Source: a candidate division FCPU426 bacterium
Lineage (GTDB): Bacteria; Oederibacteriota; JAJYGY01; DAIDJD01
NCBI GenBank assembly: GCA_031365225.1
Contig: JANLXT010000247.1
Span: 1 to 43,415, forward strand
DNA length: 43,415 bases
Reading direction: 5' to 3'
This document shows positions 8,263 through 41,168 of this stretch, piece after piece; position 1 is the first letter of the stretch, and each line of letters opens with the position of its first letter. The translations under genes and the position numbers were made by a program. The notes below the pieces were generated by a model, which worked only from the letters and a program-made list of their open reading frames with translations, was not told the origin of the DNA and did no database searches.

Positions 8263-9456
8263 CTAATGGGACGAAAGAGTGTCTTGCAGATCTTGAGCCA
8301 GCGTGACGTCCACGGCGCGCAGGCGCTCTATCTGGGCATGGGCCGAATCTTTATCCCCAAGCTCTTCGAGCACCAGCGCCAGGTTGTAATAGGCCTGACC
8401 CAAGCTCGGGTCCAAACGGATCGCTTCTTGATAGGACTGACTGGCTTCTTGTTTTTGCCCTTGCTGATCAAAGATCACGCCCAAGTTATAGCGAGCCTTG
8501 GCGCTATGCGGATCTTTTTGCAAAGCTTGGTCAAATTCGCGTTGCGCGTTCTTGGTCAAGCCCTGCCGCAAGAACAGCGTGCCCAGCTGGTAGTGCGCGC
8601 GAGCGTATTCTGGATGCAGCTCAACGGCGCGCATCAACGTCTCGGCCGCGGCTTCTTGCAAGCCGCTTTCCATTTGCAGGGTGCCGAGACTGACCAGCAT
8701 CTCGGAATTGTCTGGGCGCAATCGCAACGATGCCTCGGCGGCGTCGATTGCCAAGGGCAGTTGACCAGTGGCCGTGTAGAGCGCCACCATATTTTGGTGC
8801 GCCCATTCATGATCGGGGTTCACCGACAGGCAGGCCAGATACGCTTCCATGGCCTCGTCTCGCCGACCCAGGTCCTCAAGTAAAACACCCAGATTAAAAT
8901 AAGCGTCGGCGTACTTGGGGTCCAGGCTCACCGCTTTCGAAAAATACTCGATCGCCTGGGACGCGTCCCCTTCTGCGGACGCCAAGGTCCCCAGATAGTA
9001 GAAGACCACGGGTTGATCAGCTTTGAGGGCTAAAGAGCGCTCAAGTTGAGCGCGAGCCGAGGCTAGATCCTGCGCCTCGTAATCAAGCACCCCAAGATTG
9101 AAGTGCGCTTCGGGCAAAGCGTCGTTGTGAGCGATCGCTTGGACGTAGTGCGCCCGGGCCTCGTCATTGCGGCCTTGCGCGTGCAGATCCGCCCCCAAAT
9201 TGCAGCGCGCTTCACTGTGGTCCGACTGCAGCTCGAGGCAACGCTCGTAAAACTTTATCGCCTGTTCCAGATCACCTTTACCGTCGAGCGCGACGCCCAA
9301 GAAAAAATAGACATCAGCGTCGTCTGGAAAGAGTTGCAGGCCTTTCATCAGCTCACGCACCGCCAAATCAAGATAGCCCCGGTCGAGGCAATCCTGGCAA
9401 AACTTAAGGCGTCCGTCCTTGCTGCTAAGATTTAGGTCGTTTTCGTCCATCGTCAA
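8263..9456 (-). CDS. Tetratricopeptide (TPR) repeat protein, cytoplasmic
   Basis: Around 10 consecutive 34-aa repeats with the W/LG/Y..A..Y/F..A TPR pattern (e.g. AYFNLGVLLEDLGRRDEAMEAY). No signal peptide. Confidence 0.8.
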   Translation of the reverse strand: MTMDENDLNLSSKDGRLKFCQDCLDRGYLDLAVRELMKGLQLFPDDADVYFFLGVALDGKGDLEQAIKFYERCLELQSDHSEARCNLGADLHAQGRNDEARAHYVQAIAHNDALPEAHFNLGVLDYEAQDLASARAQLERSLALKADQPVVFYYLGTLASAEGDASQAIEYFSKAVSLDPKYADAYFNLGVLLEDLGRRDEAMEAYLACLSVNPDHEWAHQNMVALYTATGQLPLAIDAAEASLRLRPDNSEMLVSLGTLQMESGLQEAAAETLMRAVELHPEYARAHYQLGTLFLRQGLTKNAQREFDQALQKDPHSAKARYNLGVIFDQQGQKQEASQSYQEAIRLDPSLGQAYYNLALVLEELGDKDSAHAQIERLRAVDVTLAQDLQDTLSSH

Positions 9457-14879: not shown

Positions 14880-16155
14880 CGGCCCTAGCATAGTGCCTGT
14901 GAAATTCTTTATCACTAGCTTGCTCATGTCATTGCTGACACCGTTGGGCCTCGCCGCCGCTGGCTTTGGGTCCACGGGCGCGTTGCTCATGGCCGAAACC
15001 TGGTCACCTCGCCCCTTGGCCATGCACGGCGCCATGACCGCCTTGGTCGATGACAGCAGCGCTATTTATATTAATCCCGCCGGTCTAGCCGCCAGCCAAG
15101 GACTGCGGCTCGATGGTGGATTGGCCTTAGGTCTCTTAGATACGCGTGTGACTTGGGGAACTCTTGGTTGGAACTTAGGTGTCCAAGGTGCGCTGGGCCT
15201 GCAAGCCGCGGTGCTCAGTGACACAGACACGCGTCGCGACGCCTTTGGCAATGAGCTGGGCGAATTTAATAACAGCGTCATCTCAACGGGCCTCGCCTGG
15301 GCGCGTAATCTAAGCGCCGACTGGCGTGTGGGTCTTGGGGCCAAAGGACTGTCTGAAGACTACGCTGGGTCGCAGAGCCTATCGGTGGCGGGCGATCTTG
15401 GTCTGCAGGGTCGTTTGTCGCACGGTGTGCGCGTAGGCTTGAGCGCACAAAATATGGGCGCTCAATTAAGCTCAAACAATGGCGGTGCCGGCAAAGACCC
15501 TACGCCCTGGCGCGTGCAGGCTGGTGTGGCCGTGCCGCTCTTCTTTGAATCTTGGCAGCTAGAAGTGGATGCCCAGCATCTGCCGATCGAAGAACAGCTA
15601 CGGGTCTTGATCGGCACCGAATTGACACGTACCGTGGCTTGGGGGCCAAGTGAGGCTTCGGCGCAAAACAGCGCGCCCGCCAGGATCAGCCTGCGCCTGG
15701 GCACCGCCTTGGGGACTTTGCGCGAAGAGCTACCGCGCTTGACCGCGGGTCTAGGTTTAGCGACCGGCAAGGGGCTCGCGCTCGATTACGCGCTCTTGAG
15801 CCTGGGGCCCTTAGGGCTATTGCACCGCATGAGCATCGGTCTAGAATTTTCTGCCGCCAGACCCAGCGTGCCAAGCAGCACCGAGCTGAGCGCGCCCACC
15901 GACCTGCGCATCGAAGCCACAGGGGACCAACTGCGCCTGTCGTGGCAAGACAGCAATGGGGATGTCGCAGGCTACAATCTTTACAGCGACTTTGGCATCT
16001 TGGCTGAGCGCATGAACAGCAAACCAATGCAGGGACAAAGCCAGCTTTTGATCAACGCCGTCAAAGGTCAGCTCTACAACTTTTACGTGCGTCCCATCGG
16101 CGGCGACGGCAAAGAAGGCCCCGCAAGTCGCGTGCTGCGGTGGGTCCAGCCATGA
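14863..16155 (+). CDS. Outer-membrane beta-barrel protein of the PorV/UPF0164-like type with C-terminal fibronectin-III-like domain (start uncertain: GTG 14899 or ATG 14926 also possible)
   Basis: After a hydrophobic signal segment, GAMTALVDDSSAIYINPAGLA matches the conserved ...A.ADD.SA.Y.NPAGLA box of PorV-family and UPF0164 barrels. Alternating amphipathic strands follow. The last ~90 aa (LRIEATGDQLRLSWQDSNGDVAGYNLYSD...YNFYVRPIGGDGKEG) look like FN3. Confidence 0.5.
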   Translation: MTIQSDGPSIVPVKFFITSLLMSLLTPLGLAAAGFGSTGALLMAETWSPRPLAMHGAMTALVDDSSAIYINPAGLAASQGLRLDGGLALGLLDTRVTWGTLGWNLGVQGALGLQAAVLSDTDTRRDAFGNELGEFNNSVISTGLAWARNLSADWRVGLGAKGLSEDYAGSQSLSVAGDLGLQGRLSHGVRVGLSAQNMGAQLSSNNGGAGKDPTPWRVQAGVAVPLFFESWQLEVDAQHLPIEEQLRVLIGTELTRTVAWGPSEASAQNSAPARISLRLGTALGTLREELPRLTAGLGLATGKGLALDYALLSLGPLGLLHRMSIGLEFSAARPSVPSSTELSAPTDLRIEATGDQLRLSWQDSNGDVAGYNLYSDFGILAERMNSKPMQGQSQLLINAVKGQLYNFYVRPIGGDGKEGPASRVLRWVQP

Positions 16156-19142
16156 GAACACGTGCTCTGATCCTTGGCGTGCTGCTTAGCCTTAACGGCA
16201 TCGGACAGGCCGCCAGCGATGCTTTTGGCTACCAAAGTAGCGCGCCAAGTTTCGCGTGGGTTAACTTTACAGGCACCGCCATCTTACCCGGCGACTGGAC
16301 CAACGGGTCCGATGACGGATACTATTTGATCGACCTACCCTTCAACTTCCGTTTTTACGGCTCAAACTTTAGCAAGATCTATGTCTCGACCAATGGATAT
16401 CTACAATTTGGATCTGCCTCAAGTTACTTTGGCACCAATTGCCTCGCTGCCAATGTCGACCCTCGCAACATCGCGGCAGCCTACTGGATGGATTTGGATC
16501 CAGGACGGGGCGGGAGCGTGCAGTGGCAAGTGCAAGGTGGCGCGGGCAGTCATACCGTGCTGATTGAATTCAACAAAGTCCCGCCGCATGTGGGCGCGAG
16601 CGACGTCACCTTTGAGATAGAACTGGATGAGGCGAGCAACTCGATCGAGGTGCGTTACCTCTCTACCTCGGGCGTCGGCAGTGGCGCCAATGCGGTGGCG
16701 GGTATCCGCTCACAATTTGACTGCCCCAATCACACCGCGCTCCCTTTTAGCTGCCAGCAAGCGGTCTTGGGCGATCTAAGCGCCGTGCGTTACAGCTATC
16801 CAGCGCTCGAGCCCGCCTGCGGCACGCCCACCATCAGCCCGACCTTTAGCGTCAGTCCCAGCGCGACGCTTAGCCCCACGGTGACACAAACCGCGACGCC
16901 CAGTGCTAGCCCCAGCAACACGCCGAGCGTGACCGAAACCCTCACGGCGACCGCTAGTTTTAGCTCTAGCCCCACGGCGACCCCTAGCGCTAGCCCGAGC
17001 GTGACGCCCAGTATCACCCGCAGCGGGACCATCAGCCCAACGCACAGCGTTAGCCCGAGTGCCACCGCGAGCCCCACCATCAGCCAAACCTACAGCAGCA
17101 GCCCGACCTTTAGTTTCAGTCCAACCCATAGCCTGACGCCGACCATCACTCAAACGTTTAGCGAGAGCCCGACCTTTAGCGTCAGCCCCACCGAGACGCT
17201 CACGTTCACGGTCACGCCCAGCTTTAGCGTCAGTCCAAGCACCACGGACAGCCCAACGCTTAGCCCCAGCTGGACGAGCAGCCCAACCGAGAGTGTCACA
17301 TCGAGCATCACCCAAACGCTGAGCTCCACCCCAAGTCAGACCAAGACCGCCACGCCCAGCGTCACCTCGACACGCACGCCGTCCTTCACCCGCACTATGT
17401 CGGGCACGCCGAGCGTGACGCCGACCTTCACGCTTACGTGGACCCCCAGCGCGACACCCTACCCCCCCGCATCCGCCCCCGCCTGCATCGTGCTGGGCCA
17501 ATCAGGCTTTGGTGGCGCTGTCAGCGCGGCGCTGCCCGCGGGCCTCAACTCGCCGCAAGGCATGATCATGGATACGCGTAGCCTTCCCTATCGCGTCTAT
17601 GTGGCTGACACCCAAAACCATCGCGTGGTCTTTTGGAACGATGCCCAAGCCTTGGTCAACGGTGCCGCGCCCAATGGCGTGATCGGCCAAGCGACTTTGA
17701 ACGCTTCCAGTGCCAATCGCGGTGGCGTGGCAGCCGCCAACACGCTCAACGCACCCATGGGATTGGCCCTGGACCTGGCCACAGGTGATCTATGGATCGC
17801 GGATAGCGGCAACCATCGTGTGCTGCGTTATAGCGCCAGCATCCCTAACTTTGGCGCCAGCGCCGACCGAGTCTTAGGTCAGGGCGGTAGCCTTTCGTTG
17901 GGCAATGCCAACCAAGGTGGCCTGAGCGCGACCAGCCTCTCGGCGCCCGTGGCGTTGTCGATGGACAACGTGGGCCGCTTGGCCGTGGCCGACAGCGGCA
18001 ATCGACGAGCCTTGGTTTTTAACGATCCAAGAACCAGCGCCAGCGCGGATCTTGTGTTTGGACAAAGTAATCTTAGTAGCGCTGCCGTGCTGACGGCGAC
18101 ATCGGCCAGCCTTGGCACGCCCAGTGGTGTGCTTTTGACGGGCACCCACCTTTGGGTCGCCGATAGCGGCTTTAATCGCGTGCTGGCCTTTGGCATGGCG
18201 CCCGTGGTGCAAGCCGACGCTAGCGTCTTGTTGGGGCAGGCCGCTTACGGTGATAGTTTGGCCAACCGTGGTAGTATCAGCCCCACCGCCAAAAGCCTCT
18301 CGGCCCCCCGCGGTCTATCGATGGATCCTGCCCAGCGGGTCTACGTCAACGACAGTGCCAATCATCGTGTGCTGGCGTTTAACCCGCCCTACGACGATGT
18401 GGCCGATGTGCTCTATGGCCAAAACACCATGACGGGCGATCAACCCTGGGCCGCCAATGGCTCTCCCTATGACAACGGGCTCAACGCGCCCGCCGCCTGC
18501 GACGCCAGCGCGCTTGGCACCCTGCTGGTGGCGGACAGCGGCACCCATCGCGGTCTGCTCTTTGGCTGTGGCGCCGCAGTCGCGCCAGCCACACCCACCC
18601 CCAGTGTGACGCCGAGCGCCACGCGTAGCGCAACGGCAACGATCACGCCCACACGCACGCCCACGCCCACCATCACCCAGTCCCACACGCGCACGCCCAC
18701 CCGAACCATCACTGACACGCGCACCTTTAGCCCAACCCCTAGCCAAAGCTTTACGAACACACCCAGCTTTAGCAACACGCGCACGTTCACGCGTACATTC
18801 ACGCCCAGCATCACCACGACCCGGACCGTGACCTTGACGCCCATCCCCAGCCAAACCCCTTACCCCAAGGTGCGCGACAGGGCGATCAGCTATCCCAATC
18901 CAGCCCAGCGTGGGGCGCCCGTCTGTCTGGCCTTCCCTGCTGGCGGGACCGCGCAGATCTGGGTCTATGACTTGTTGGGCCAACCCGTGATCCAACTGCG
19001 CGACACACAGATTGACGCGGCAAAGGGATTTGCCTGTTGGGATCTTCGCCGTGGCGATGGCGCACCCATCGCGGCAGGCATATACTATTGGCGAGTCTTG
19101 GTCGAAGGAAAACAATACTTGTGCAAGATGACCGTGCAATAA
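16140..19142 (+). CDS. Large secreted multidomain protein: unknown N-terminal domain, Pro/Thr/Ser linker, NHL-repeat beta-propeller, second linker, T9SS-type / FlgD-Ig-like C-terminal sorting domain
   Basis: Signal peptide MRTRALILGVLLSLNGIGQA. At least six NHL-type repeats with the conserved (D/A)(S/T)(G/A)N(H/R)R(V/A)L..(F/Y) core (NHRVVFWN, GNHRVLRY, GNRRALVFN, GFNRVLAF, ANHRVLAFN, GTHRGLLF). The C-terminal ~90 aa (SYPNPAQRGAPVCLAF...AQIWVYDLLGQPV...AAGIYYWRVLVEG) match the T9SS CTD / FlgD-Ig pattern. 16-nt overlap with the upstream barrel gene. Confidence 0.8.
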   Translation: MGPAMRTRALILGVLLSLNGIGQAASDAFGYQSSAPSFAWVNFTGTAILPGDWTNGSDDGYYLIDLPFNFRFYGSNFSKIYVSTNGYLQFGSASSYFGTNCLAANVDPRNIAAAYWMDLDPGRGGSVQWQVQGGAGSHTVLIEFNKVPPHVGASDVTFEIELDEASNSIEVRYLSTSGVGSGANAVAGIRSQFDCPNHTALPFSCQQAVLGDLSAVRYSYPALEPACGTPTISPTFSVSPSATLSPTVTQTATPSASPSNTPSVTETLTATASFSSSPTATPSASPSVTPSITRSGTISPTHSVSPSATASPTISQTYSSSPTFSFSPTHSLTPTITQTFSESPTFSVSPTETLTFTVTPSFSVSPSTTDSPTLSPSWTSSPTESVTSSITQTLSSTPSQTKTATPSVTSTRTPSFTRTMSGTPSVTPTFTLTWTPSATPYPPASAPACIVLGQSGFGGAVSAALPAGLNSPQGMIMDTRSLPYRVYVADTQNHRVVFWNDAQALVNGAAPNGVIGQATLNASSANRGGVAAANTLNAPMGLALDLATGDLWIADSGNHRVLRYSASIPNFGASADRVLGQGGSLSLGNANQGGLSATSLSAPVALSMDNVGRLAVADSGNRRALVFNDPRTSASADLVFGQSNLSSAAVLTATSASLGTPSGVLLTGTHLWVADSGFNRVLAFGMAPVVQADASVLLGQAAYGDSLANRGSISPTAKSLSAPRGLSMDPAQRVYVNDSANHRVLAFNPPYDDVADVLYGQNTMTGDQPWAANGSPYDNGLNAPAACDASALGTLLVADSGTHRGLLFGCGAAVAPATPTPSVTPSATRSATATITPTRTPTPTITQSHTRTPTRTITDTRTFSPTPSQSFTNTPSFSNTRTFTRTFTPSITTTRTVTLTPIPSQTPYPKVRDRAISYPNPAQRGAPVCLAFPAGGTAQIWVYDLLGQPVIQLRDTQIDAAKGFACWDLRRGDGAPIAAGIYYWRVLVEGKQYLCKMTVQ
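16830..17470 (+). repeat. Imperfect tandem ~27-30-bp repeats encoding a (S/T)P(T/S)xS Pro/Thr/Ser-rich linker; a second such tract lies at 18585..18860
   Basis: Recurrent agcccgacctttagcgtcagtcccagc-type units (SPTFSVSPS...). These are low-complexity coding repeats, not CRISPR. Confidence 0.7.
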
Positions 19143-20185: not shown

Positions 20186-22036
20186 CTAGCGCAAGAGCAC
20201 CAGCTTGCTGCGTCCACGCTGACTGGCCTTGATGCCTCCCCGTACACTATCGACCAAACAGTAATACAAACCACTGGGGGCGCTCGCCAACCAATCCGCG
20301 TTCAGCGGCAAGCTGTTCCAACCTTTATTCAAGGGTCCATAGTCCCAGCGCCCCACCACCTGCATACCCGTGGTGTAAACCCGCACGGTCACGATGTCAC
20401 TCGGTCCCCCTAAGAGCACGCTCAGCGCCAAAGGATTGGGGTTGGGCACAGCCGCCACGTCCAAGACTTGGTTGGGCCCGCTCCCAGGCACGGGTGTCGC
20501 GGTGGCGCTGGCACTTGGGCTGATCGTCGCCGTGATGAGCGGACTGGGGCTAGGACTAAAGCTATGGGTGAGTGTCGGTGTGGCTGTCGGGCTTGGTGAC
20601 AAGGTGTGGGTCGCGCTTTCACTGGGCGTCACGGTGGAAGTCTTGGTGCCCACAGGGCATTGCGCCGCGCTCCAGGCCGCGTCGAGCAAGTCGTGCGAGG
20701 ACCCGATCCTATCGCCATTCAGATCCCAAAAGAAGACCCCCGCCAGGCCCCGGGTGCCCACCGCATACTGCGTTTTTATCCATATGGATTGTGGGTCGTC
20801 GTAACTGATAACACCCGCGCCCGCGTCTTCACGCAAGTAAGGGCTGGCGGCTTCTTCGTCCCAATAACGGGTCCACCCCGGCGTCGCGCCAGTCACAAAC
20901 GGGACAATGTTTCTGTAGTCCCGGCTCGAGGCCAGGGCGGGAGTGAAGGACTGATAGAGATTCTCTCCGTCGCCATATTTGTAGCCATAGGCTGGCATGC
21001 CAAAAAGTATCTTGGCTGGATTCAGCCCCTTCGCTAAAAAATAGTTCACATTGATGTTGGAGTTGTAATTGGTGTACGGCAATCCGCCTGGTAAAAGAGA
21101 TTTGTAAAGTCCCGCGTTGTGACCGCTCTTGCTCTCCCAAGCGCCATGCCGGTCATAAAACATCAGATTGATGTAGTCGAGGTAATACTGCAGATAAGCT
21201 ACATCCACCCATTGGCCATAATAGTTGCCCCAGCTGACATCGATGGTGATCAAAAAATTCTGCGTTGTCGGTGAACTATTAAACTTGGCGCGCAACTCCG
21301 TCGCAAACTGGTTTAACGCGAGCTTGTCGCCTGCACTGTCAGCAAATTCCCAATCAATATCCATGCCGTCATAGTCGTTGGCGACCAAAAAAGCTGTAAG
21401 GTTGTCGATAAACGTCGTCCGCGCGGCAGGGCTCAAGATCATCTCGTCAAAAAATTCACTGCCACCCCCGGGTTGATCGTCCGCCCCGCCCACACTGACC
21501 AGGACTTTCACTCCATTGGCGTGGGCCAAGGTATTCATGGCAGGATCAAGATAGCTGCCCGGTACATCCAAGCTGCCATCTGCTAAAGGCCGAATGAAGG
21601 CATGCGCGATATGGGTGAGCTTGGTGTAGGGCAGGGCGCTGGCAGGCATCGCCGCGCGCGTCCAATAAGGATAAAAGCTCATCACCACCTTTGGACAGGC
21701 AACGGGTGTAGGAACGGCCATCGTGATGCTGGGCGTGGGTGTCGGGGAGGCAGTGCGGGTATAAGTGCGGGTGCGAGTGGCGCTCGCCGCATTGGTAAGG
21801 GTCTCGGTGATTGTCGGCGATTCAGTCTCGGTGATTGATGGAGTCGCAGTTTCAGTAATCGTCGGGGTCTCAGTCTCAGTAACTACATCCGTCTCAGTAG
21901 GGCTGGGACTGTCCGTCAAAGTCTCTGTATACGTCTCCGTCGCTCTCAGTAAAACCGAGAGCGAGACCAAAGCAAGTATGCTGATAAAACGTCTAAACAC
22001 TGGGGCCCCATTCATAAACACAAGCCATCGAAACAA
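20186..22036 (-). CDS. Glycoside hydrolase family 18 (chitinase-like), with N-terminal acidic TExT repeat linker and C-terminal T9SS-type/FlgD-Ig-like sorting domain
   Basis: GH18 catalytic DxxDxDxE motif in YDGMDIDWEF. SxGG (LVSVGGA). N-terminal TETYTETLTDSPSPTETDVVTETETPTITETATPSITETESPTITETLT low-complexity tract. C-terminal VPNPNPLALSV...VRVYTTGMQVVG...GLYYCLV resembles a T9SS CTD. Confidence 0.8.
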   Translation of the reverse strand: MFRWLVFMNGAPVFRRFISILALVSLSVLLRATETYTETLTDSPSPTETDVVTETETPTITETATPSITETESPTITETLTNAASATRTRTYTRTASPTPTPSITMAVPTPVACPKVVMSFYPYWTRAAMPASALPYTKLTHIAHAFIRPLADGSLDVPGSYLDPAMNTLAHANGVKVLVSVGGADDQPGGGSEFFDEMILSPAARTTFIDNLTAFLVANDYDGMDIDWEFADSAGDKLALNQFATELRAKFNSSPTTQNFLITIDVSWGNYYGQWVDVAYLQYYLDYINLMFYDRHGAWESKSGHNAGLYKSLLPGGLPYTNYNSNINVNYFLAKGLNPAKILFGMPAYGYKYGDGENLYQSFTPALASSRDYRNIVPFVTGATPGWTRYWDEEAASPYLREDAGAGVISYDDPQSIWIKTQYAVGTRGLAGVFFWDLNGDRIGSSHDLLDAAWSAAQCPVGTKTSTVTPSESATHTLSPSPTATPTLTHSFSPSPSPLITATISPSASATATPVPGSGPNQVLDVAAVPNPNPLALSVLLGGPSDIVTVRVYTTGMQVVGRWDYGPLNKGWNSLPLNADWLASAPSGLYYCLVDSVRGGIKASQRGRSKLVLLR

Positions 22037-22154
22037 TGTCTCGGTGACTAAATCAGGCTCAAGCCTATCATCTACGGCCTCTTATTTCAGCTACTAGTAC
22101 TCTTGAAAAAACCAGGTAACAAAAGGTCTTTAAGGGTTTGTCGGGGTGCGGCTA

Positions 22155-22892
22155 TTATTTTGAAAAACCCAGATCATCAAGATAAGTATTGGCCACTTGC
22201 CCCAGCGCGCCGGCCGCGTACTGAATGTCGACTGTGTTGATCACGGGATCAAGCGCGTTGTTGTCGGCGGGATTGCCTAGAGTCACGTGAAAGTAGTTAT
22301 TTAAAGTGAATGCCACCAACGGCACCTGTACAAGCTGCCACGTTGACCCAGCGGTGACAGCGACCAGTGGGCTGGTCCATTTTTCTTGATTGCCACCCAG
22401 GGTGGCATTATCCTCGACCAACGTGACATAAAGCCCTAAGTCTTTATCGGTCTTGATCCACATAAAAAACTTAGTCGGAGCGATGGATCGAGCGTCGACC
22501 AACGCGACCGCGCAACTCATGGGCGAGAACCCAAAACCTGCTCCCCAACTAGTGGCGAAGTTATAACTGTGATAGTACGCCCCCGACCCGCTGTGCGCCT
22601 GGGCGCTATCTTGGGTCAACGTGGGGATAGCGGGACTGCTTGTGCCATCATCGTAGGTGTAGAAGCCACAAGGCAGGCTTTCCATCTGATCAAAGTAGAT
22701 CTCGGTCAGCGCAGGCGGGGGCGGGGGCGGAAGAGGCGCTGGCGCTGGCAAGGACGCCAGATCATGTTGATCGAAAGGATTGGGGCGCTGTTGCGGAGGC
22801 GCCTCGAGCCAGAAGCCAAGCGCGCAGGCCAAACTAGGCAATGAAAGCGTGACGGCCAAAATAAGACGAATCAATTTCGAGAGCTTTTTCAT
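22155..22892 (-). CDS. Secreted protein, paralog A: signal peptide, conserved GFWLEAPPQQRPNPFD N-motif, poly-Pro linker, one CBM11/CIA30-like beta-sandwich module
   Basis: Signal peptide ending SLACA. Motif LGFWLEAPPQQRPNPFDQH. PPPPPP linker. Module alignable with the first module of 23016..24515 (MESLPCGFYTYDDGTS...WIKTD...FHVTLGNP). GGGAGG SD lies 5 nt upstream. Confidence 0.7.
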   Translation of the reverse strand: MKKLSKLIRLILAVTLSLPSLACALGFWLEAPPQQRPNPFDQHDLASLPAPAPLPPPPPPALTEIYFDQMESLPCGFYTYDDGTSSPAIPTLTQDSAQAHSGSGAYYHSYNFATSWGAGFGFSPMSCAVALVDARSIAPTKFFMWIKTDKDLGLYVTLVEDNATLGGNQEKWTSPLVAVTAGSTWQLVQVPLVAFTLNNYFHVTLGNPADNNALDPVINTVDIQYAAGALGQVANTYLDDLGFSK

Positions 22893-22957
22893 GGCGTCCT
22901 CCCAGCGTTGTCATCTGTCTATTTAGACACCTTTCCTCAGCGCTAAGTTCCCCGCAA

Positions 22958-22990
22958 GCAAAAAGCCCCCCGCGTCACCGCGGAGGGCTC
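22958..22990 (-). terminator. Rho-independent terminator of paralog B (minus strand)
   Basis: Minus-strand GCCCTCCGCGgtgaCGCGGGGGGCttttt: a 10-bp stem with one mismatch, followed by a U-tract. Confidence 0.7.
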
Positions 22991-23015
22991 TTGGCTTGCC
23001 TTTGTCAATCAAACT

Positions 23016-24515
23016 TTAGGGAACAAAGTACATGTCATCGATATACACGTTTGCCAAAGTACGTGGACCCACCGTGTCTGTCGCGAATTGAATCTGAATA
23101 TCAAAGACTTTGCTGATATTGAAGATGTCGTCCCCAGCAGGCGCCAGCGCGATCGAGGCGGCAGTCTCGATGGTAAAGTTTGACAACGGGATCGAGATCA
23201 GCTGCCAGGCGCCACCCGCCACGGGAATGTTGATATTGGGGTTCTGCCAGTACTCTCCCGCGACACCAGGGCGATTGGGATCCACCCCGACGCCCTCACG
23301 AAGGATGAATGACATATTCACGGCGTAGTCGGTCTTGACCCAGAACTCAAACTTGGTGGCGATAGCCATGCTTATCTCGCCACCGCAACCGACGGGATAA
23401 CCCCAGTAGAAGCCTCCGCCATATCCAGAAGTATCTAGGACAGAATCAACGGTCGCCTGCAACAGCAGGCTTTGCGCGCCATTGTGCGGGACGCCCACGT
23501 AGCTTTGAGCGATATCCGTCCCCGCTCCGTTCGCGCAGTCTCCATCGTCACAATAAGTGCCGTCATAGCAAAGACTACCTTCAAAATCATCGACCTTGAT
23601 GGGCGCCGCGGGTAATTGTCCGCGGTCCGCAAAACCGTAGTCATCCATGTAGATATTCACGAGCGCGCCTGATCCAGCGCCATATTGAATGTCGGCTTCG
23701 TTGACGACATATTGAAAAACACTGTCATCCATTGGATTGCCTAAGGTTGTGTGGAAATAGTCATTCGGTATAAAGTCGCTAAGCTTTGCCTCAATCAACT
23801 GCCAACTAGGCGATGCAGTCACGGCGACTGGAAGGCTAGTCCAATGCTCGCTGTTAACCGCACCTGAGATCGAAGCCGTATCTTCGACAAAAGTAAAGTA
23901 GATGCTGAGGTCCCCATCGGTCTTGATCCATAGATAGACGTGTGTCGGACTGATGGGACGCGCATCGATGACCGTGCAAGATCCCATCGCCGAGAAGCCC
24001 CAGCCACAGCCCCAGCTGGTCCCTGTGGTGAAGCTTTGGTACCACGAACCCAAGCCCGAAAAGACGGTGCCCGTCTCCGCGACAGGATCACCAAAGCCAG
24101 AAGTGGTGCCATCCTCATAACCGCCATAACCACCGCACATGGGGTTTTCCATGTCGTCATACATCACGACAGCGACGGTGGGTGACGGGGTCGGTGACGC
24201 CGCAGAACCAGGGGTGTTGGTCAGGGTGATGGTTGGGGTCGGTGTTATTGTGGGCGAATTGGTCAAGGTGACTGGCGGCGAATTGGTGAATGTCGGCGTC
24301 ACAGTACGTGTCGATGTTACCGTAAGCGTCCACGTAGGCGTCCCTACCACAACAATCGGCGCCACCGTTGCTACAAAAAGCGGGCTTTGGCGATCAAAGG
24401 CATTGGGCCGCGTTGAAGGTGGCGCCTCAAGCCAAAACGGAAAAGCCATCGCTTGTGCCGCAATCAGGCCACTGATGATAAAAACCAAAGTTTGGGAAAG
24501 TTTTCTTGAAATCAT
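23016..24515 (-). CDS. Secreted protein, paralog B: signal peptide, FPFWLEAPPSTRPNAFD N-motif, Thr/Pro linker, two CBM11/CIA30-like modules
   Basis: Signal peptide ...AAQAMA then FPFWLEAPPSTRPNAFDRQSP. Module 1 VVMYDDMENPMCGGYGGYEDGTTSGFGDP...LWIKTDGDL...NIYMDDYGFA. Module 2 VDDFEGSLCYDG...FEFWVKTDYAV...VYIDDMYFVP. GAGGGG SD. Confidence 0.7.
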   Translation of the reverse strand: MISRKLSQTLVFIISGLIAAQAMAFPFWLEAPPSTRPNAFDRQSPLFVATVAPIVVVGTPTWTLTVTSTRTVTPTFTNSPPVTLTNSPTITPTPTITLTNTPGSAASPTPSPTVAVVMYDDMENPMCGGYGGYEDGTTSGFGDPVAETGTVFSGLGSWYQSFTTGTSWGCGWGFSAMGSCTVIDARPISPTHVYLWIKTDGDLSIYFTFVEDTASISGAVNSEHWTSLPVAVTASPSWQLIEAKLSDFIPNDYFHTTLGNPMDDSVFQYVVNEADIQYGAGSGALVNIYMDDYGFADRGQLPAAPIKVDDFEGSLCYDGTYCDDGDCANGAGTDIAQSYVGVPHNGAQSLLLQATVDSVLDTSGYGGGFYWGYPVGCGGEISMAIATKFEFWVKTDYAVNMSFILREGVGVDPNRPGVAGEYWQNPNINIPVAGGAWQLISIPLSNFTIETAASIALAPAGDDIFNISKVFDIQIQFATDTVGPRTLANVYIDDMYFVP

Positions 24516-24641
24516 AAAAACCCCTCGACGTGGGCCAAAAGAATTGGGCCCTGAATAGTAGTTTAGACCCGTTCTTTCAAAAGATGTTCCTCTAAATGGA
24601 TCTATAAAATCTATGTAGAATAAGGGCTTTAATTTGTCTTT

Positions 24642-24690
24642 AAGTCAAAAAGAGCCCCGCAGATCAGTCACGGGGCTCTTTTTGACTTAG
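24642..24690. terminator. Bidirectional terminator formed by a 19-bp perfect inverted repeat (stem includes the A/T tracts)
   Basis: TAAGTCAAAAAGAGCCCCG-cagatcagtca-CGGGGCTCTTTTTGACTTA. A 19-bp stem with an 11-nt loop, 24 nt downstream of the stop of 24714..26270. Confidence 0.7.
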
Positions 24691-24713
24691 TTAGGATCTA
24701 GAATAAATACATC

Positions 24714-26270
24714 CTAGGGTTGCAAAGTAATGTCGTCAATATACACGTTGGCAACGGTCTCGGGTCCAACGGCATCGGTACCGATCTGCCATTCAAACCA
24801 GATCAAGTTGCTTGTGTTGACCACGCCATCACCGATGTTAGAACCACCTGTCCGTGCCCAGCCAGAGGCCAATGGCAAGATGATGTGCTGCCAAGCCCCG
24901 CCCGCCACGCCTATGGTCTGGTCATAAGCCCAGCTCTCGCCAGTTCCCGCGCCCAAGACTGGGTCGCTGCCAGCTCCTTCGCCCATCGTAGGTATCAAGC
25001 GTACGGGATAGTCTGTCTTGACCCAAAAATCAAAGTTATTAACGCCGTTGGCCGCCAAGGTCGCTACGGCGCACCCTTGAAAACCAAAGCCAACCCCACC
25101 GCCCCACGAAACTGTCGTGGCCTTCGCCTGTATATATAAGCTATTGGCACCGCTATGCACAGTCCCTGTGTCGACTGCCGCGGTAATGTCGGTGGCATTG
25201 CCATCCGTGCAATTTAAGTCATCGCAATAAGCGTAAGAGCCACAAAGCCCGTTCTCAAAATCATCCACGACCGCCGGTCCAGGAAGCGGCGTGGGCATCG
25301 GCGTTGAGATCGCTTGATTCGAGAACCCAAAGTCATCCAGATAGACATTCACAAGCGCGCCAGTGCCCACGCCATACGCGATGTCAGCTTCTGAGATCGC
25401 TAAGTCAAAAATACTGTTGTCCACCGGGTTGCCCAAAGTGACATGGAAATAGTTAGCTAAGACCATGTCGCTTATTTTTACTTCGGCAACCTGCCAACTG
25501 GACGATCCTGGTAGCGAGACTACCGGTGATGACCAATGCTCTGAGTTAACAGCGCCTGCGATAGAAGCTACATCTTCGATAAAAGTAAATTGCAGAGAAA
25601 TTGGGCCATCTGTCTTGACCCATATATAGATATAAGTTGGGAGCGGGCTATTAGCTTGCCAATCGACAAGCGCGCAAGAGCCCATCGATGAAAAGCCCCA
25701 GCCACATCCCCAACTGGTCCCCGTGGTAAAGCTTTGAAACCATGAACCCGCGCCAGAATGGACGACGACCGTCTCGGCGACAGGATCCCCAAATCCAGAA
25801 GTGGTACCATCCTCATAGCCGCCATAACCACCACACATGGGGTTTTCCATATCGTCATACATCACCACCACGGCCGTTGCTGTAGAAGTAGGTGTATTGA
25901 CGATGGCAGGGCTATTGGTGAACGTCGGCGTCACCGTGCGTGTCGCCGTTTGCGTGTTGGTTGGCGTCGACGACACAAAAGCGCTCTGGGTAAACGTGGG
26001 CGTCACCGTCGAAGTGGGCGTCGCTGTCACAGCGGGGGTGTCTGTCAAAGTTAATGTGATCGTTCGGGTCGCCGTATTTTGTGGCGTATTGGTAATCGTG
26101 CTCACGGGCGCTGTGCCCAGGGTCGGTACAAAATTGGGGTTTTGACGATCAAAAGGATTGGGCCGTGTTGAAGGCGGCGCCTCTAACCAAAATGGGAATG
26201 CAACCGCGTAGGTGGCGCTGAACGCCACCACGCTAAATAACGCTAGTGTAGCAAGGTTTTTAAATCTCAC
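24714..26270 (-). CDS. Secreted protein, paralog C: signal peptide, FPFWLEAPPSTRPNPFD N-motif, Thr-rich linker, two CBM11/CIA30-like modules (GTG start at 26270 preferred over TTG at 26276)
   Basis: ...SATYAVA then FPFWLEAPPSTRPNPFDRQNP. About 90% nucleotide identity to paralog B across the VVMYDDMENPMCGGYGGYEDGTTSGFGDP region. Second module VVDDFENGLCGS...FDFWVKTDYPV...VYIDDITLQP. GGGAG SD lies 6 nt before the GTG. Confidence 0.7.
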   Translation of the reverse strand: MRFKNLATLALFSVVAFSATYAVAFPFWLEAPPSTRPNPFDRQNPNFVPTLGTAPVSTITNTPQNTATRTITLTLTDTPAVTATPTSTVTPTFTQSAFVSSTPTNTQTATRTVTPTFTNSPAIVNTPTSTATAVVVMYDDMENPMCGGYGGYEDGTTSGFGDPVAETVVVHSGAGSWFQSFTTGTSWGCGWGFSSMGSCALVDWQANSPLPTYIYIWVKTDGPISLQFTFIEDVASIAGAVNSEHWSSPVVSLPGSSSWQVAEVKISDMVLANYFHVTLGNPVDNSIFDLAISEADIAYGVGTGALVNVYLDDFGFSNQAISTPMPTPLPGPAVVDDFENGLCGSYAYCDDLNCTDGNATDITAAVDTGTVHSGANSLYIQAKATTVSWGGGVGFGFQGCAVATLAANGVNNFDFWVKTDYPVRLIPTMGEGAGSDPVLGAGTGESWAYDQTIGVAGGAWQHIILPLASGWARTGGSNIGDGVVNTSNLIWFEWQIGTDAVGPETVANVYIDDITLQP

Positions 26271-26379
26271 TCGCAACTCCCATTGTCAACATACCCATTC
26301 GAAGCGTTTCGATTTTAAATTAGACTCGCTTCGCGCACTAAGGTTCCATAAACATATTCAGCTTGCTAGGTACGTGCGC

Positions 26380-27444
26380 TTAAAACGCCAACAAACGATA
26401 CTTCATGCCCATGCCACCTTGTTCGGTGATATGCGCCTGCAAGTCAGGTGGCTCGGACATAGAATAGGTCGAGCTGCCCTTAGGCTTGGCAAAGATGACG
26501 GCGTCAACCAAGGTAATGCCGTACATGACCGTCATGCCTAAGAAGAAGATATGGTTCAGCTCGGCCATGCTCTTCCAACTCTCGAAAGACGAGTCAAACT
26601 CAGACTGTGGGTCCGTGGCTCCAAGCTTGAGGTACTTGTCCTTGGCCGCGCTACCGATCATATACGTACCGATCTCAGCGCCCCACATGCCTAGAGTCAA
26701 GCCACCCAACAAGAGACCCTTGGTGGACTGGCCATTATAGAACTGGCCCCAACCAGGCAAAACGGCGCTACGCCACAACGGTTGCACCCAATCTTTAGGA
26801 CCATCGGCCACCACGGCTTGCCCGCCAACCTGCAAGGCTTCGGGCGCATAGGCCGTGAGGAAATTGCGTAACGAGGCATTGCTGGGATCAAGCGCCAAAG
26901 CACGCTTGTAGTTGTCAACCGCGTTGCTCTTATCTCCCTTAGCATAGTAAGCATTGCCCATACCTTGGAAGGTCTTGGCATTACGGGGGTTGAGAGTCGC
27001 GGACTGCTTGTAGTAGTAGATGGCGAAATCATATTTTTTAGCGGCGTAATAGCGATTGCCGTAGTCCAATTCTTTAGCGCCTTGCGCGCCCTGCGCGGCG
27101 GCGGCAGAAGCCCCTGCGGCATAAGGAGCGAGCTTGGCGACAAATTGCCCGAGGGCGGCATCTTGCGGATTCAATGAATAAGAATATTTGTAATATTTTA
27201 GAGCGTTGTTGTAATCTTTTTTGGCGTAATAAACGTTGCCCAAGCCTTTCCAGGCGGCGGCGTTGCGAGGGTCAGCTTTCGCGGCGCTAGAAAAAGCGCT
27301 GATGGCCTTATCGTACTGTTGTAAAGCAAACTGCTGTTGTCCGTAGGCGACCCATTGTTTGCCGACCGTGGCGGGATCCGCGGCCCTGCCCAACGAAGCC
27401 AAAGCGAGCCCTACGACCAATCCTAAAACAGTGTTTCTAAGCAT
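26380..27444 (-). CDS. Secreted/membrane-anchored TPR repeat protein (start at ATG 27444 giving signal peptide MLRNTVLGLVVGLALASLGRA)
   Basis: Repeated ...A...A...G..YY.K.DY..A..YYK... TPR-like units. Hydrophobic segment GLLLGGLTLGMWGAEIGTYMIG near the C-terminus. The longer upstream ORF start would merely translate the leader. Confidence 0.7.
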   Translation of the reverse strand: MLRNTVLGLVVGLALASLGRAADPATVGKQWVAYGQQQFALQQYDKAISAFSSAAKADPRNAAAWKGLGNVYYAKKDYNNALKYYKYSYSLNPQDAALGQFVAKLAPYAAGASAAAAQGAQGAKELDYGNRYYAAKKYDFAIYYYKQSATLNPRNAKTFQGMGNAYYAKGDKSNAVDNYKRALALDPSNASLRNFLTAYAPEALQVGGQAVVADGPKDWVQPLWRSAVLPGWGQFYNGQSTKGLLLGGLTLGMWGAEIGTYMIGSAAKDKYLKLGATDPQSEFDSSFESWKSMAELNHIFFLGMTVMYGITLVDAVIFAKPKGSSTYSMSEPPDLQAHITEQGGMGMKYRLLAF

Positions 27445-27508
27445 AAAAAACCCCGCAAAAAACCAAGTTTTGTGTCTCTGCCAAAAAAAGTCTATCAAAG
27501 CGCTCCAA

Positions 27509-38443: not shown

Positions 38444-39448
38444 CTACTTGATCGGCCTCACGCTCAATTCCACCTCTTGCGCAGCCAAAGAGAAAGCCCA
38501 AATTTCTTCTGTAGGTAAAGTCAGCTCGCCCTTCACTTCCCCACCCAGATCTAAGATCAAAGCCCCCTGGCAGCGCTCTAGCCTCAGCCTGGTCCATTTG
38601 CCGGGTCGCCAGCCGAGGGGAGTGTTGGGTTTACCGAGCTTGGCTTTGTCAGGGCTGATCAAGAGCAGGCCAGATCCATCTGGCTGGGGGACCAATGAAA
38701 GCATCAGGGGGATGGCACCGGTTGAGCCGGGTTTTAGCTCGGCTTCCCAGGCTTGGCCGTCTTTAAGCGCGCCCAGCATTTGGGTGCGCGCGAGCTTCTT
38801 GCCCATGACCGATAGCAGGATGGCGCGCTGACGCGCTGACGCGGGCCAAGATTTGACGCGGGTTTTGGCGCAGGTCAGAGGACTTGGCGCAGAGCTGGCA
38901 TCGGTGCTTTGCGCCTGCCCAACTTTCACCACAGGTGTCTTTTGAGGTGGAGAATTTGACGCGGGCGCCGAATTTGGGTCGATCGTGTAGACACGTATGC
39001 CGCTCACCACAAAATCATCAGCGATGCCGACACCTGCGTCGATCTCTAGTCGGTGGGCGCCAGGACCGAGCGTGATGGGTGCCACCCAGGCCCAGCCTTT
39101 GGCATTGTGCTCGTGGCGCAGCGGACCGAGGGAACGGTTATCCAAACTGACCAGAGGCTCAGCCAGGTGCTCGCGATCCAGACCGAAGACTTTTTTGATC
39201 TCAATCCGCACGAACGCCGCACTCGTGAGCGTGAAGGGCCAGCTATGGGTACGCCCCGCCCACGGCTCCCGTAAGACTTGGACCGACGACGCGGTGTCAG
39301 GCGCTTCACTGCCATCCCCCAATCGCCAGCGCGCGTCATCTGACACAAAGTTCTTGGCGTGAAGCGTCACGCCAAGTCCAAGCATTAAACCAAGCAGGCT
39401 AGCGCGAACCACGGCCTGCCTTGGATTGCTTCTGAAGTTCCCGCTCAA
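38444..39448 (-). CDS. Secreted hypothetical protein (signal peptide; no recognizable family)
   Basis: N-terminal LLGLMLGLGVTLHA signal. 334 aa. High GC consistent with host genes. The track start overlaps the upstream gene by 50 nt, so the true start may be internal. Confidence 0.55.
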   Translation of the reverse strand: MSGNFRSNPRQAVVRASLLGLMLGLGVTLHAKNFVSDDARWRLGDGSEAPDTASSVQVLREPWAGRTHSWPFTLTSAAFVRIEIKKVFGLDREHLAEPLVSLDNRSLGPLRHEHNAKGWAWVAPITLGPGAHRLEIDAGVGIADDFVVSGIRVYTIDPNSAPASNSPPQKTPVVKVGQAQSTDASSAPSPLTCAKTRVKSWPASARQRAILLSVMGKKLARTQMLGALKDGQAWEAELKPGSTGAIPLMLSLVPQPDGSGLLLISPDKAKLGKPNTPLGWRPGKWTRLRLERCQGALILDLGGEVKGELTLPTEEIWAFSLAAQEVELSVRPIK

Positions 39449-41168
39449 GCAATTTTAAATTTTGCTGTCCTAACGCCCAATCAGGCTTAAGCGCCAGAGC
39501 GCTCAACAACGCCTGCTTGGCGTTGCTCAGGTCACCCGCGCCTGCCAGGGCCGTGGCCAAATTTCCCCAGGCTTCGTGACTGTTTGGGTTCAACGATAGC
39601 GAGTGACGCAACGCCGCATCGGCCGCGCGCAGGTCGCCTAGTTTGCCCAGGCTCAGCCCCAAGATATTCCACGCCTCAGCCGAGGATGCTTGCGCACGCA
39701 AGGCCGCTTGGGCCGCCGCCAGGGCCGCGGCGCTATCGCCCAACTTGTCCCATTGAACCGCCAAGGCCAAGGGCGCGCGAACATCTTCAGGCCAGAGGCG
39801 ATTGGCGCTGCCGAGCACAGGCCGAGCCAGATCGGGGCGGCCTGCCAACGCCAACTCTTGTCCTCGTCGCAAGAGCGCGCTGGCCTGAGCGTGCCGGCCA
39901 AAAAGAAGCAGACTGACGATGCTTAACGCGACCAGCCCGACGCCCACGGCTTGGGACCCACGACGACTGAGCGCTGTCTGGCGTTGCTCGCAAAGGCACC
40001 CGAGCAAAGCCCAAAAGAGCATGGCGCTTGGCACGATCGCCAACGGAAAATGGGCGGCGGCGTGCACGCTAAAAGCAAGCAGCGCGCCTACCGTGCCCCA
40101 GGCCTTGGTCACCCACGCCTGGCGTAGCCCAAAGAACCATAGCGCTAACAAAAAGAACAAGCCCGGCAAACCAGATTCCGCGGCTGTTTGAAGCCAGTCG
40201 TTGTGGGCGTGCGGCGTGTTGCGATAGACACCCCCCTCGCGATTAAGGCGCTCGCCTTGCGCTTGCGCGTACGCGTCCGCAAAGCGTCCCGCACCCACGC
40301 CCGTCAAAGGCCGCGACCACGCCAGATCGAGCGCGATCGTGCTCATCGCCAGACGCCCCTGCCAGCCATCGTCGTTGATGTTGGTCAAACTGGCTAAACG
40401 ACGCAGCGAATCGAGACCGCGCGGATTGAGCGCATGCGTGCCGGACAAGAGTATCAGCAAGAGCAAAGGCAAAATAAACAAGCCTGCCAATCGCCGCCCC
40501 CGCAACTGGCCCGCGCGCCACGCCTGAACGCAGACCCACGCCGCGCCCAGCGCGCCCGCCAACCACGCGGCTCGTGCTTGAGTCAAAGCGAGTGCGGTGC
40601 TGATCAGAAACACGGCCCAAACACGCCCGCGTTGGCGCAACCATGCGTCCAAGACCAAGGGCAAAGCCAACGCCAAGTAACCCCCCAAAAAGTCAGGGTT
40701 GCCTAAGGTGGCGTAAGCTCGACGCGAGAATCCCAATTCGACCGCGTCTTTGGCCAAGGGATCCCAGCCCAAGCCCTGCGCACAAGCGTAGGCCGCCACC
40801 GCCACCGCACCCCAAAGGCCGGCGCGTAACGCTAACGCGCGCGATGCTTGATTGCCACAGGCCAAAACGCCAAAGAGCGACCCAGTCAGCGCCCATTCAC
40901 ACAACCAGGCTAGCTCCAGCGGACCGCTCAAAGCGTGGCTTACCCCCCGCCACGCAAAATAAAAAAGCCCCGCCAGCGCCAAAGCGCCCCGGGGCTTTAC
41001 GAGTTCTGATCCAAACAAGATTCCAACACCTAGCAACAGTGTCGCCATCGCTAAGGCAAGCCATTGCGGCAAGCGATAAGCGTCTTCTAGTATTGGCGCG
41101 CAAGCGAGTGGTCCCAGCGCCAGCGCCAGCAGCAGTCCTAAACCTAAGGCCCGCTGCCCTCGGCTCAC
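39399..41168 (-). CDS. O-antigen ligase-like (Wzy_C family) polytopic membrane protein fused to C-terminal TPR repeats
   Basis: About 10 TM helices. Wzy_C-type loop ...YRNTPHAHNDWLQTAAESGLPGLFFLLALW. C-terminal TPR units (AEAWNILGLSLGKLGDLRAADAAL, HEAWGNLATALAGAGDLSNAKQAL). Confidence 0.75.
   Translation of the reverse strand: MSRGQRALGLGLLLALALGPLACAPILEDAYRLPQWLALAMATLLLGVGILFGSELVKPRGALALAGLFYFAWRGVSHALSGPLELAWLCEWALTGSLFGVLACGNQASRALALRAGLWGAVAVAAYACAQGLGWDPLAKDAVELGFSRRAYATLGNPDFLGGYLALALPLVLDAWLRQRGRVWAVFLISTALALTQARAAWLAGALGAAWVCVQAWRAGQLRGRRLAGLFILPLLLLILLSGTHALNPRGLDSLRRLASLTNINDDGWQGRLAMSTIALDLAWSRPLTGVGAGRFADAYAQAQGERLNREGGVYRNTPHAHNDWLQTAAESGLPGLFFLLALWFFGLRQAWVTKAWGTVGALLAFSVHAAAHFPLAIVPSAMLFWALLGCLCEQRQTALSRRGSQAVGVGLVALSIVSLLLFGRHAQASALLRRGQELALAGRPDLARPVLGSANRLWPEDVRAPLALAVQWDKLGDSAAALAAAQAALRAQASSAEAWNILGLSLGKLGDLRAADAALRHSLSLNPNSHEAWGNLATALAGAGDLSNAKQALLSALALKPDWALGQQNLKLLERELQKQSKAGRGSR

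Follow-up and report, generated by a model that had tools for sequence, protein, structure and literature searches.

A conserved peptide at the mature N-terminus of secreted glycan-active proteins, a putative sorting or anchoring tag in a candidate phylum

Background

Short sequence labels such as LPXTG, PEP-CTERM, the C-terminal domain (CTD) of the type IX secretion system (T9SS), and the lipoprotein export signal (LES) each revealed a dedicated machine of the bacterial envelope and made surface proteomes predictable from sequence. In a stretch of 43,415 nucleotides from a candidate division FCPU426 bacterium (contig JANLXT010000247.1 of assembly GCA_031365225.1; hereafter, the window), three neighbouring genes, A, B, and C, encode secreted proteins which share the motif (L/F)(G/P)FWLEAPPxxRPNxFD directly behind an AxA signal-peptidase site. 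The present study concerns this motif (hereafter, the tag), for which a role as an N-terminal sorting or anchoring tag had been considered, among others, in a prediction made from the letters of the window.

It is very unusual for non-lipoproteins to bear a conserved label at the N-terminus whose activity begins only once signal peptidase has cut, the closest precedent being the N22 peptide of curli. N22 is an unstructured peptide at the N-terminus of mature CsgA, which binds CsgG and suffices to target heterologous proteins to the surface (PMC7217966). In Bacteroidota, the LES is a motif of the mature N-terminus, often with a linker behind it, which decides whether glycan-binding and glycan-degrading proteins are exposed on the surface (PMC5080379). 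The T9SS CTD is a folded beta-sandwich of around 80 residues at the C-terminus, and the signals of the LPXTG/sortase and PEP-CTERM/exosortase systems consist of a short motif beside a membrane-spanning segment and a basic patch, often with a Pro/Thr-rich region.

Position of the tag in the window

In A, the tag (LGFWLEAPPQQRPNPFDQHD; 22761-22820, minus strand) follows directly after ACA, the end of the signal peptide. The tags of B (FPFWLEAPPSTRPNAFDRQSPLFV; 24372-24443) and C (FPFWLEAPPSTRPNPFDRQNPNFV; 26127-26198, from mature residue +1 onward), both likewise on the minus strand, reach 48.1 and 47.8 bits, respectively, against a hidden Markov model (HMM) of the tag. The mature N-terminus of B reads FPFWLEAPPSTRPNAFDRQS after AMA and that of C reads FPFWLEAPPSTRPNPFDRQN after AVA, and all three signal peptides are basic at first and then hydrophobic. 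A six-frame scan of the window with the regular expression FWLE.PP found no further copy. The identity of seven residues at the same position in three open reading frames (ORFs) cannot be chance, and the ORFs, the mature N-termini, and the scan bear out the original prediction of a near-invariant motif directly behind AxA in three paralogues. Between A and its orthologue P0006, which is encoded on a syntenic contig of another assembly (L001), the tag is identical to 90%, the whole proteins to 62%. The predicted unmodified tryptic N-terminal peptide of the tag is FPFWLEAPPSTR; further semi-specific N-terminal peptides predicted for tagged proteins are FPFWLESPSR, FPLWLDSPTR, and LGFWLEAPPQQR.

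Spread, consensus, and modularity

An exhaustive HMMER search of 1.84 billion cluster representatives (E up to 1e-3), with a profile comprising the signal peptide, the motif, and module 1, yielded 73 matches; with the window proteins and close relatives, 76 proteins were in hand. The tag occurs at the same place in 53 of these, and it heads at least 50 other clusters of secreted carbohydrate-binding or carbohydrate-degrading proteins beyond A, B, and C. The motif is thus found far outside the window and on unrelated passenger domains, and not in three recent duplicates only, a restriction which the original prediction had named as fatal to it.

The consensus of around 25 residues reads A|FP[FL]WL[DE]xP-x(1-3)-RxNPxDP[KRQ][SN]P[LN][FY], the bar marking the cleavage site. 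Concerning single columns, L is conserved in 52, R in 51, P in 50, and F in 45 of the 53 tagged proteins, while W, N, and D, present in all 53, are not independent, having been required by the regular expression used for selection. The Trp is situated at residue 22-47 in 51 proteins, the two outliers being a 5'-truncated call (residue 13) and an over-extended start (residue 64). According to a heuristic cleavage rule, position -1 is Ala in 51 proteins and Gly in two, position -3 is A, L, G, I, S, V, or T, and the n-region of most proteins contains two to four K/R; in 32 proteins the Trp is mature residue +4, and in the remaining 21 it lies between +5 and +7. Judged by these features, the tagged proteins have the signal peptides expected of Sec and signal peptidase I substrates. 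The tag is always located at the first mature residues and always followed by a Thr/Pro/Ser-rich linker, these residues making up a median of 57% of the 60 residues after the motif.

There are two sub-variants, ADIPFFWLDKPxGRxNPNDPNSPLF and AALPFLFWLPxxxRxNxxDPKSxLF, and the window form, EAPPxxRPNxFDRQ, is a divergent variant of the widespread consensus D/E-S-P-x-R-S-N-P-x-D-P-K-S-P. Narrow patterns of the window type (A[FL][PG]FWLE[AS]P and P[SQ][TQ]RPN[PA]FD) gave no further copy when 185,579 species genomes and 241 million metagenome records were scanned, such that the window variant must be very rare. The broader pattern AFP[LF]WL[DE]SP led to the loci L003 and L005-L012; pattern matches in L004, L013, and L014 were discarded as chance, being internal (near residue 290-320) and covering half the motif.

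The passengers are unrelated to each other: CBM11-like carbohydrate-binding modules (CBMs) in one to four copies, CatAgl alpha-1,3-glucanase, malectin with DUF1349, CBM9, CBM6, and SGBP_B_XBD were found, and in several tagged proteins the passenger has no Pfam match. In untagged CBM11-like paralogues (P0011 and, in L017, the gene behind that of P0008), the signal peptide is directly joined to the module, and tag and linker, both being absent there, therefore behave as one transferable unit. The untagged gene in L017 (3828-4637) lies directly behind that of the tagged, four-module protein P0008.

Only one species-representative genome contains the common pattern in the right context, JAJYGY010000172.1 ('MAG: bacterium isolate DBS1-3.bin31'), and the placeholder JAJYGY01 of GTDB appears to be named after this DBS1-3.bin31 assembly. 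JAJYGY01 has been termed a novel or candidate phylum in a study of wetland tree bark (bioRxiv 10.1101/2024.07.02.601631). All further carriers are contigs from metagenomes (JGI, ENA, and Logan assemblies), with a GC content of 50-70%. By their project identifiers, the JGI samples are presumably soil, peat, and rhizosphere. OEP/TolC-like and OmpA-family proteins are encoded on carrier contigs, which makes a diderm envelope likely.

Selection on the motif

In a codon-level comparison of A with its orthologue, nonsynonymous divergence (dN) amounts to 0.074 in the motif, 0.30 in the module, 0.19 in the linker, and 1.0 in the signal peptide. Between B and C it is 0.068 in the motif, 0.235 in module 1, and 0.59 in module 2, and over the comparisons it ranges from 0.19 to 0.53 in linkers and from 0.8 to 1.0 in signal peptides. 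Synonymous sites of the motif are close to saturated (proportion of synonymous differences, pS, 0.5-0.84), and a motif dN of around 0.07 hence indicates purifying selection, stronger than that on the folded domains. The assumption that selection on the motif, rather than recency, accounts for its conservation is confirmed by this contrast (0.07 in the motif, 0.24-0.30 in the modules, with saturated synonymous sites).

The tandem arrangement of the paralogues in the window, and the short conversion-like tract that B and C have in common, would fit an N-terminus simply inherited within a small paralogous family, without a function of its own. The combination of high pS and low dN in the motif, the situation of the tract outside the motif, and the presence of the motif on unrelated passengers and on contigs differing in GC content (50-70%) refute this explanation. 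Recent gene conversion was likewise rejected as a cause of the motif identity, the tract being located in module 1.

The tag and its passenger modules

In the AlphaFold model of A (pLDDT 88), for which an alignment of 24 sequences was used, the tag region has a pLDDT (predicted local distance difference test) of around 60 and the module of more than 90, suggesting that the tag is an unfolded linear peptide. An alignment of eight sequences had given a pLDDT of 57, which was too poor. Docking of the tag on the module in the manner of a propeptide was rejected, no contact between the two being predicted. Were the tag a propeptide or latency peptide, cleaved off at maturation and acting as an intramolecular chaperone or inhibitor, its place behind the signal peptide would be fitting, as in many zymogens; however, 20-90 residues of flexible linker separate tag and passenger, non-catalytic CBMs and unrelated enzymes carry it alike, around 25 residues are too short, with no predicted fold or module contact, and no conserved processing site follows. 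We regard such a role as very unlikely.

Concerning the modules themselves, Pfam CBM_11 (PF03425) is recognized in module 2 of B (E 1.5e-6, 28.8 bits at a cutoff of 27), while module 1 of B and all modules of A and C remain below the Pfam thresholds. The best match of the A model in the PDB is CBM11 of C. thermocellum (1v0a; E 4e-8, template modelling score 0.63), followed by 6r31 and 2lro and then by CBM30 and the CIA30 protein NDUFAF1. A beta-sandwich like that of CBM11, CBM30, and CIA30 is predicted for the window modules, at a sequence identity of just 13-17%. The predicted CBM11/CIA30-like fold is supported by both the Pfam and the structure match, and the modules of A, B, and C are best modelled as CBM11-like beta-sandwiches and predicted glycan binders.

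Comparison with known signals

The tag corresponds to no described sorting signal in the resources searched, as had been supposed: No model in Pfam-A (2025) or NCBIfam (June 2026) extends over it in 13 tagged proteins (E up to 1), profile searching returned no PDB sequence, and a full-text literature search for motif strings found nothing matching.

Several known signals were considered and rejected. A lipoprotein signal (signal peptidase II), including the LES, is contradicted by the lack of a Cys near the cleavage site in B, C, P0003 (the other tagged protein of L001), and P0006; A has a Cys at -2 only (SLACA|LG), which is not kept in the orthologue (SLASA|LG). In type IV pilin-like (class III) signals, a site of cleavage and methylation (G|F-x-x-x-E) comes before a hydrophobic helix of around 20 residues; here the hydrophobic segment precedes the motif, Pro/Asn/Asp and a Thr/Pro linker follow it, and the site is mostly A|FP, not G|F. 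For PEP-CTERM, LPXTG, and GlyGly-CTERM, no curated model matched at either terminus (same 13 proteins, E up to 1), and a C-terminal transmembrane helix with a basic tail is missing; A, B, and C end with ...DD[LMI]xFxx, i.e., within the CBM module. A thrombospondin-type calcium-binding repeat, which NPxDPxSP resembles, gave no Pfam match.

Compared to the LES, the tag has the same position at the mature N-terminus, equally glycan-active passengers, and a linker behind. The LES, however, is a short acidic patch after a lipidated Cys at +1, whereas the tag is around 25 residues long, follows an AxA site of signal peptidase I, and has no Cys at +1. The arrangement of the tag (basic n-region, hydrophobic helix, motif, Pro/Thr linker) is the mirror image of the C-terminal tripartite signals mentioned above, but these are situated at the opposite terminus, and the hydrophobic segment at the tag is that of an ordinary Sec signal peptide with AxA; no sortase or exosortase gene is linked to the tagged loci.

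Most similar in position and nature is N22 of curli, equally a short, unstructured, modular peptide at the mature N-terminus of a Sec-exported protein. It is Gly/Asn-rich, whereas the tag is aromatic and rich in Pro/Asn/Asp, and there is no sequence similarity between them; the curli passenger is an amyloid subunit, whereas the tag is found on CBMs and glycoside hydrolases, large and folded, that sit on long stalks. The likeness raises the possibility of a targeting-only peptide, which would dock a periplasmic intermediate on an outer-membrane channel, without later anchoring, and be retained or trimmed thereafter. The low pLDDT of the motif region and the diderm context are in line with it. 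The obligatory long Thr/Pro stalk, however, is easier to explain with a fixed N-terminus, and none of the loci is linked to a gene for a CsgG-like or other channel (no csgG-like or csgE-like gene was seen at the fetched loci). Considering also the lack of similarity to N22, targeting alone appears unlikely, if still a serious candidate.

A second label is found next to the tagged genes. The chitinase-like GH18 (glycoside hydrolase family 18) protein (20186-22036, minus strand) contains Thr/Pro/Glu linkers and a CTD-like C-terminal beta-sandwich, and the C-terminal 95 residues or so of the NHL protein (16140-19142) are CTD-like as well. The domain, of around 90 residues, also occurs on genes upstream in L002 and L012, and a divergent CTD-like family is common to the window, L001, L002, and L012. 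The original designation of these domains as T9SS-type can be kept with respect to their CTD-like character, but not as a confident label: The window copies score below threshold only (FlgD_ig, E 0.016; Por_Secre_tail, E 0.006), and the copies of L002 and L012 reach the cutoff of FlgD_ig, while none reaches that of Por_Secre_tail. An HMM built from five local CTDs matched none of the 53 tagged but seven of the 23 untagged proteins (Fisher p = 1.1e-4), by which a T9SS C-terminal sorting domain on tagged proteins is rejected. The claim that tagged proteins lack the CTD of their neighbours consequently holds, and it fits a different localization route.

The window genome uses both labels, on different proteins. 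Like the tag, the CTD is a modular label of secreted glycan proteins in the same genomes, joined to a Thr/Pro linker, and the two are mutually exclusive; but the tag is a linear N-terminal peptide of around 25 residues and not a folded C-terminal domain, and there is no homology.

The CTD proteins also bear on the idea that the tag marks a site of covalent modification at or near the new N-terminus, be it attachment of the alpha-amine to peptidoglycan, lipidation, or docking of an O-glycosyltransferase for the adjacent linker. CTD proteins have Thr/Pro linkers without a tag in the same genome, and the tag is therefore not needed for handling the linker; furthermore, with F, L, D, A, or G as the first mature residue, there is no fixed acceptor, and no locus shows linkage to a transpeptidase or acyltransferase gene. 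Attachment of N-termini to peptidoglycan has reportedly been observed in outer-membrane proteins of Brucella. The strictly constant distance to the signal-peptidase site suggests that a free N-terminus is needed, Asp, Asn, Lys, and Ser occupy positions with little or no variation, and a Wzy_C/PglL-type protein is encoded in the window. On balance, a covalent modification seems quite unlikely.

Proposed function and candidate partner

From its sequence and distribution, the motif is best read as a modular N-terminal sorting or anchoring tag that is apparently undescribed, a reading to which we give a probability of roughly 0.55. Sec would export the precursor, and signal peptidase I would cut after AxA, such that an unfolded linear peptide becomes exposed, aromatic at its head (FPFWL) and proline-rich and turn-forming at its tail (RxNPxDPKSP). 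A partner in the envelope would then bind this peptide and either pass the protein to the surface or hold its N-terminus at the envelope, with the long and probably glycosylated linker as the stalk on which the CBM or enzyme would face outward. A, B, and C would be three clients with CBM11-like modules; as they adjoin the CTD-bearing GH18 gene, glycan binders and hydrolases would be displayed by two labels.

The best candidate for the partner is a predicted membrane protein with tetratricopeptide repeats (TPRs) and DUF5683, encoded directly upstream of C (26380-27498, minus strand), with ATG 27444 as the probable start. It comprises a signal peptide, around 190 residues of TPRs, and DUF5683 (PF18935) at residues 241-340 (E 1.8e-6, 28.5 bits at a cutoff of 26.7); the orthologue in L018 likewise bears DUF5683 in its precomputed annotation. 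TPR grooves typically bind extended peptides. An alignment of orthologues exhibits an invariant segment, P[KR]DWxQxLWRSAxLPGWGQxYN (PKDWxQPLWRSAxLPGWGQxYN in the window protein), two hydrophobic segments, and an invariant C-terminal Phe. This Phe is preceded by K-x-x-[LV]-x-x, which is reminiscent of an outer-membrane beta-signal, yet there are two helix-like hydrophobic segments in the same region. No functional literature on DUF5683 was found. Another, unrelated TPR protein is encoded at 8263-9456 of the window.

At a distance of 24-157 nt, the gene or its orthologue precedes tagged CBM11-type genes in the window, L001, L015/L016, L018, L019, and L022, the orthologues showing identities of 83% (L001), 47% (L022), 49% (L018), 50% (L019, truncated), and 36% (L015/L016). 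In five lineages the gene lies directly upstream of tagged CBM11-type genes, and the loci with the pair span three sub-variants of the tag. In L015, the flanking pyr genes are not kept, while the pair of TPR gene and tagged gene persists.

Tag and TPR+DUF5683 protein could together represent a previously unknown sorting or surface-anchoring system of the candidate phylum (JAJYGY01 and relatives), a tentative proposal that we hold at well below even odds. The system would be an N-terminal, non-lipid counterpart of the CTD/T9SS or sortase-type systems, in which dozens of glycan-active proteins per genome would be caught in the TPR groove by their newly exposed N-terminal peptides.

Several points weigh against a sorting or anchoring tag with this partner. 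The pyr genes precede the TPR gene not only in the window but also in L001, L018, and L022, such that part of the linkage is inherited synteny and maybe due to common descent. Tagged genes in L003, L005-L012, L017, and L020 (alpha-1,3-glucanases and others) have no TPR+DUF5683 gene as a neighbour; if it is the partner, the protein would accordingly be a single-copy factor for dispersed clients. The contrast between tag and CTD is confounded by lineage, and some of the CTD-bearing matches may come from phyla without the tag. Finally, the census of passengers is biased, the search profile having included the CBM11-like module.

No neighbour gene was common to all tagged loci in an all-against-all comparison. 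An aldo-keto reductase gene upstream in L003, L005, and L008 was dismissed, these being orthologous loci only. On a JGI contig (3300050046), around 4 kb downstream of the gene for the tagged malectin protein P0044, a 341-aa TPR gene is followed after 33 nt by a 641-aa gene without a Pfam match, a candidate for a further pair of TPR gene and tagged gene.

Forest soil, peat, and tree bark are the habitats of the uncultured bacteria in which the tag labels glycan-binding proteins and glycoside hydrolases, among them alpha-1,3-glucanases and CBM-rich proteins. Recognition of the tag would allow annotators to call the displayed polysaccharide-degrading proteins of the carriers, and it would offer a handle on the cognate machinery and, potentially, a compact tag for surface display.

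Organization of the locus

The genes are arranged in the order purC-like, carA, carB, pyrD, TPR gene, C, B, A, and GH18, A, B, and C being co-oriented on the minus strand between the pyrimidine operon and the GH18 gene. Gene A (22155-22892) encodes 245 aa, with the signal peptide at aa 1-24, the tag at aa 25-44, a poly-Pro linker at aa 45-62, and a single CBM11-like module at aa 63-245 (22158-22706). Gene B (23016-24515) encodes 499 aa; behind the signal peptide (aa 1-24) and the tag (aa 25-48) come a Thr/Pro linker (aa 49-114) and two modules, module 1 at aa 115-299 (23619-24173) and module 2 at aa 306-499 (23019-23600). In gene C (24714-26270; 518 aa), the signal peptide (aa 1-24; 26199-26270) and the tag (aa 25-48) are followed by a Thr/Pro linker (aa 49-132) and two CBM11-like modules (module 1, aa 133-320, 25311-25874; module 2, aa 333-518, 24717-25274).

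As originally described, three minus-strand ORFs with a Shine-Dalgarno (SD) sequence each exist, and the SD sequences were located (GGGAGG, GAGGGG, and GGGAG for A, B, and C, respectively). The length of C had to be corrected from 520 to 518 aa: The most likely start is GTG 26270, since the SD (GGGAG) is situated 7 nt upstream of it, whereas the alternative TTG 26276 directly abuts the SD, and the public gene call (P0001) is concordant. Of the terminators formerly assigned to each of the genes, those of B and C were retrieved as strong hairpins with a U-run on the minus strand, at 24641-24689 behind C (-41.2 kcal/mol, z -10.0) and at 22954-22999 behind B (-39.4 kcal/mol, z -6.2), while the region behind A (22085-22157, minus strand) contains no recognizable intrinsic terminator (fold z +0.8). 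A is possibly co-transcribed with, or read through toward, the GH18 gene, which lies 119 nt downstream.

The nucleotide identity of around 90% formerly given for the first module of B and C applies to around 60 codons at its beginning (78-93%; third positions 65-80%), but not to the remainder, outside of which tract identity amounts to 57-67% (third positions 35-50%). The tract (23973-24152 in B, 25674-25853 in C) does not include the N-terminal motif and, from its sequence, looks like a short gene-conversion tract. On contig L001 there is a single gene with two modules (P0003) and a single gene with one module (P0006), and B and C are hence the result of a lineage-specific duplication. The CarB protein of the window is identical to 92.5% with that of L001 and to 81% with that of L022. 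A word-indexed protein search with A returned A and its orthologue only, and one with full-length C returned four proteins only, words of the Thr/Pro linker dominating it.

Long Val/Gly-rich ORFs on the plus strand (24139-24558, 25837-26145, and 21765-22097) are antisense to the Thr/Pro linker repeats and almost certainly artefacts of repeat composition, not genes. At the edge of the window (51-1841, plus strand), a protein with GH43, GH43_C2, and malectin is encoded; as malectin is also the passenger of the tagged P0044, passenger domains are shuffled between differently labelled proteins. At 39399-41168 (minus strand), a Wzy_C domain (O-antigen ligase or PglL-type) is fused to TPRs; for this protein, a role as O-oligosaccharyltransferase of the abundant Thr/Pro linkers is conceivable.

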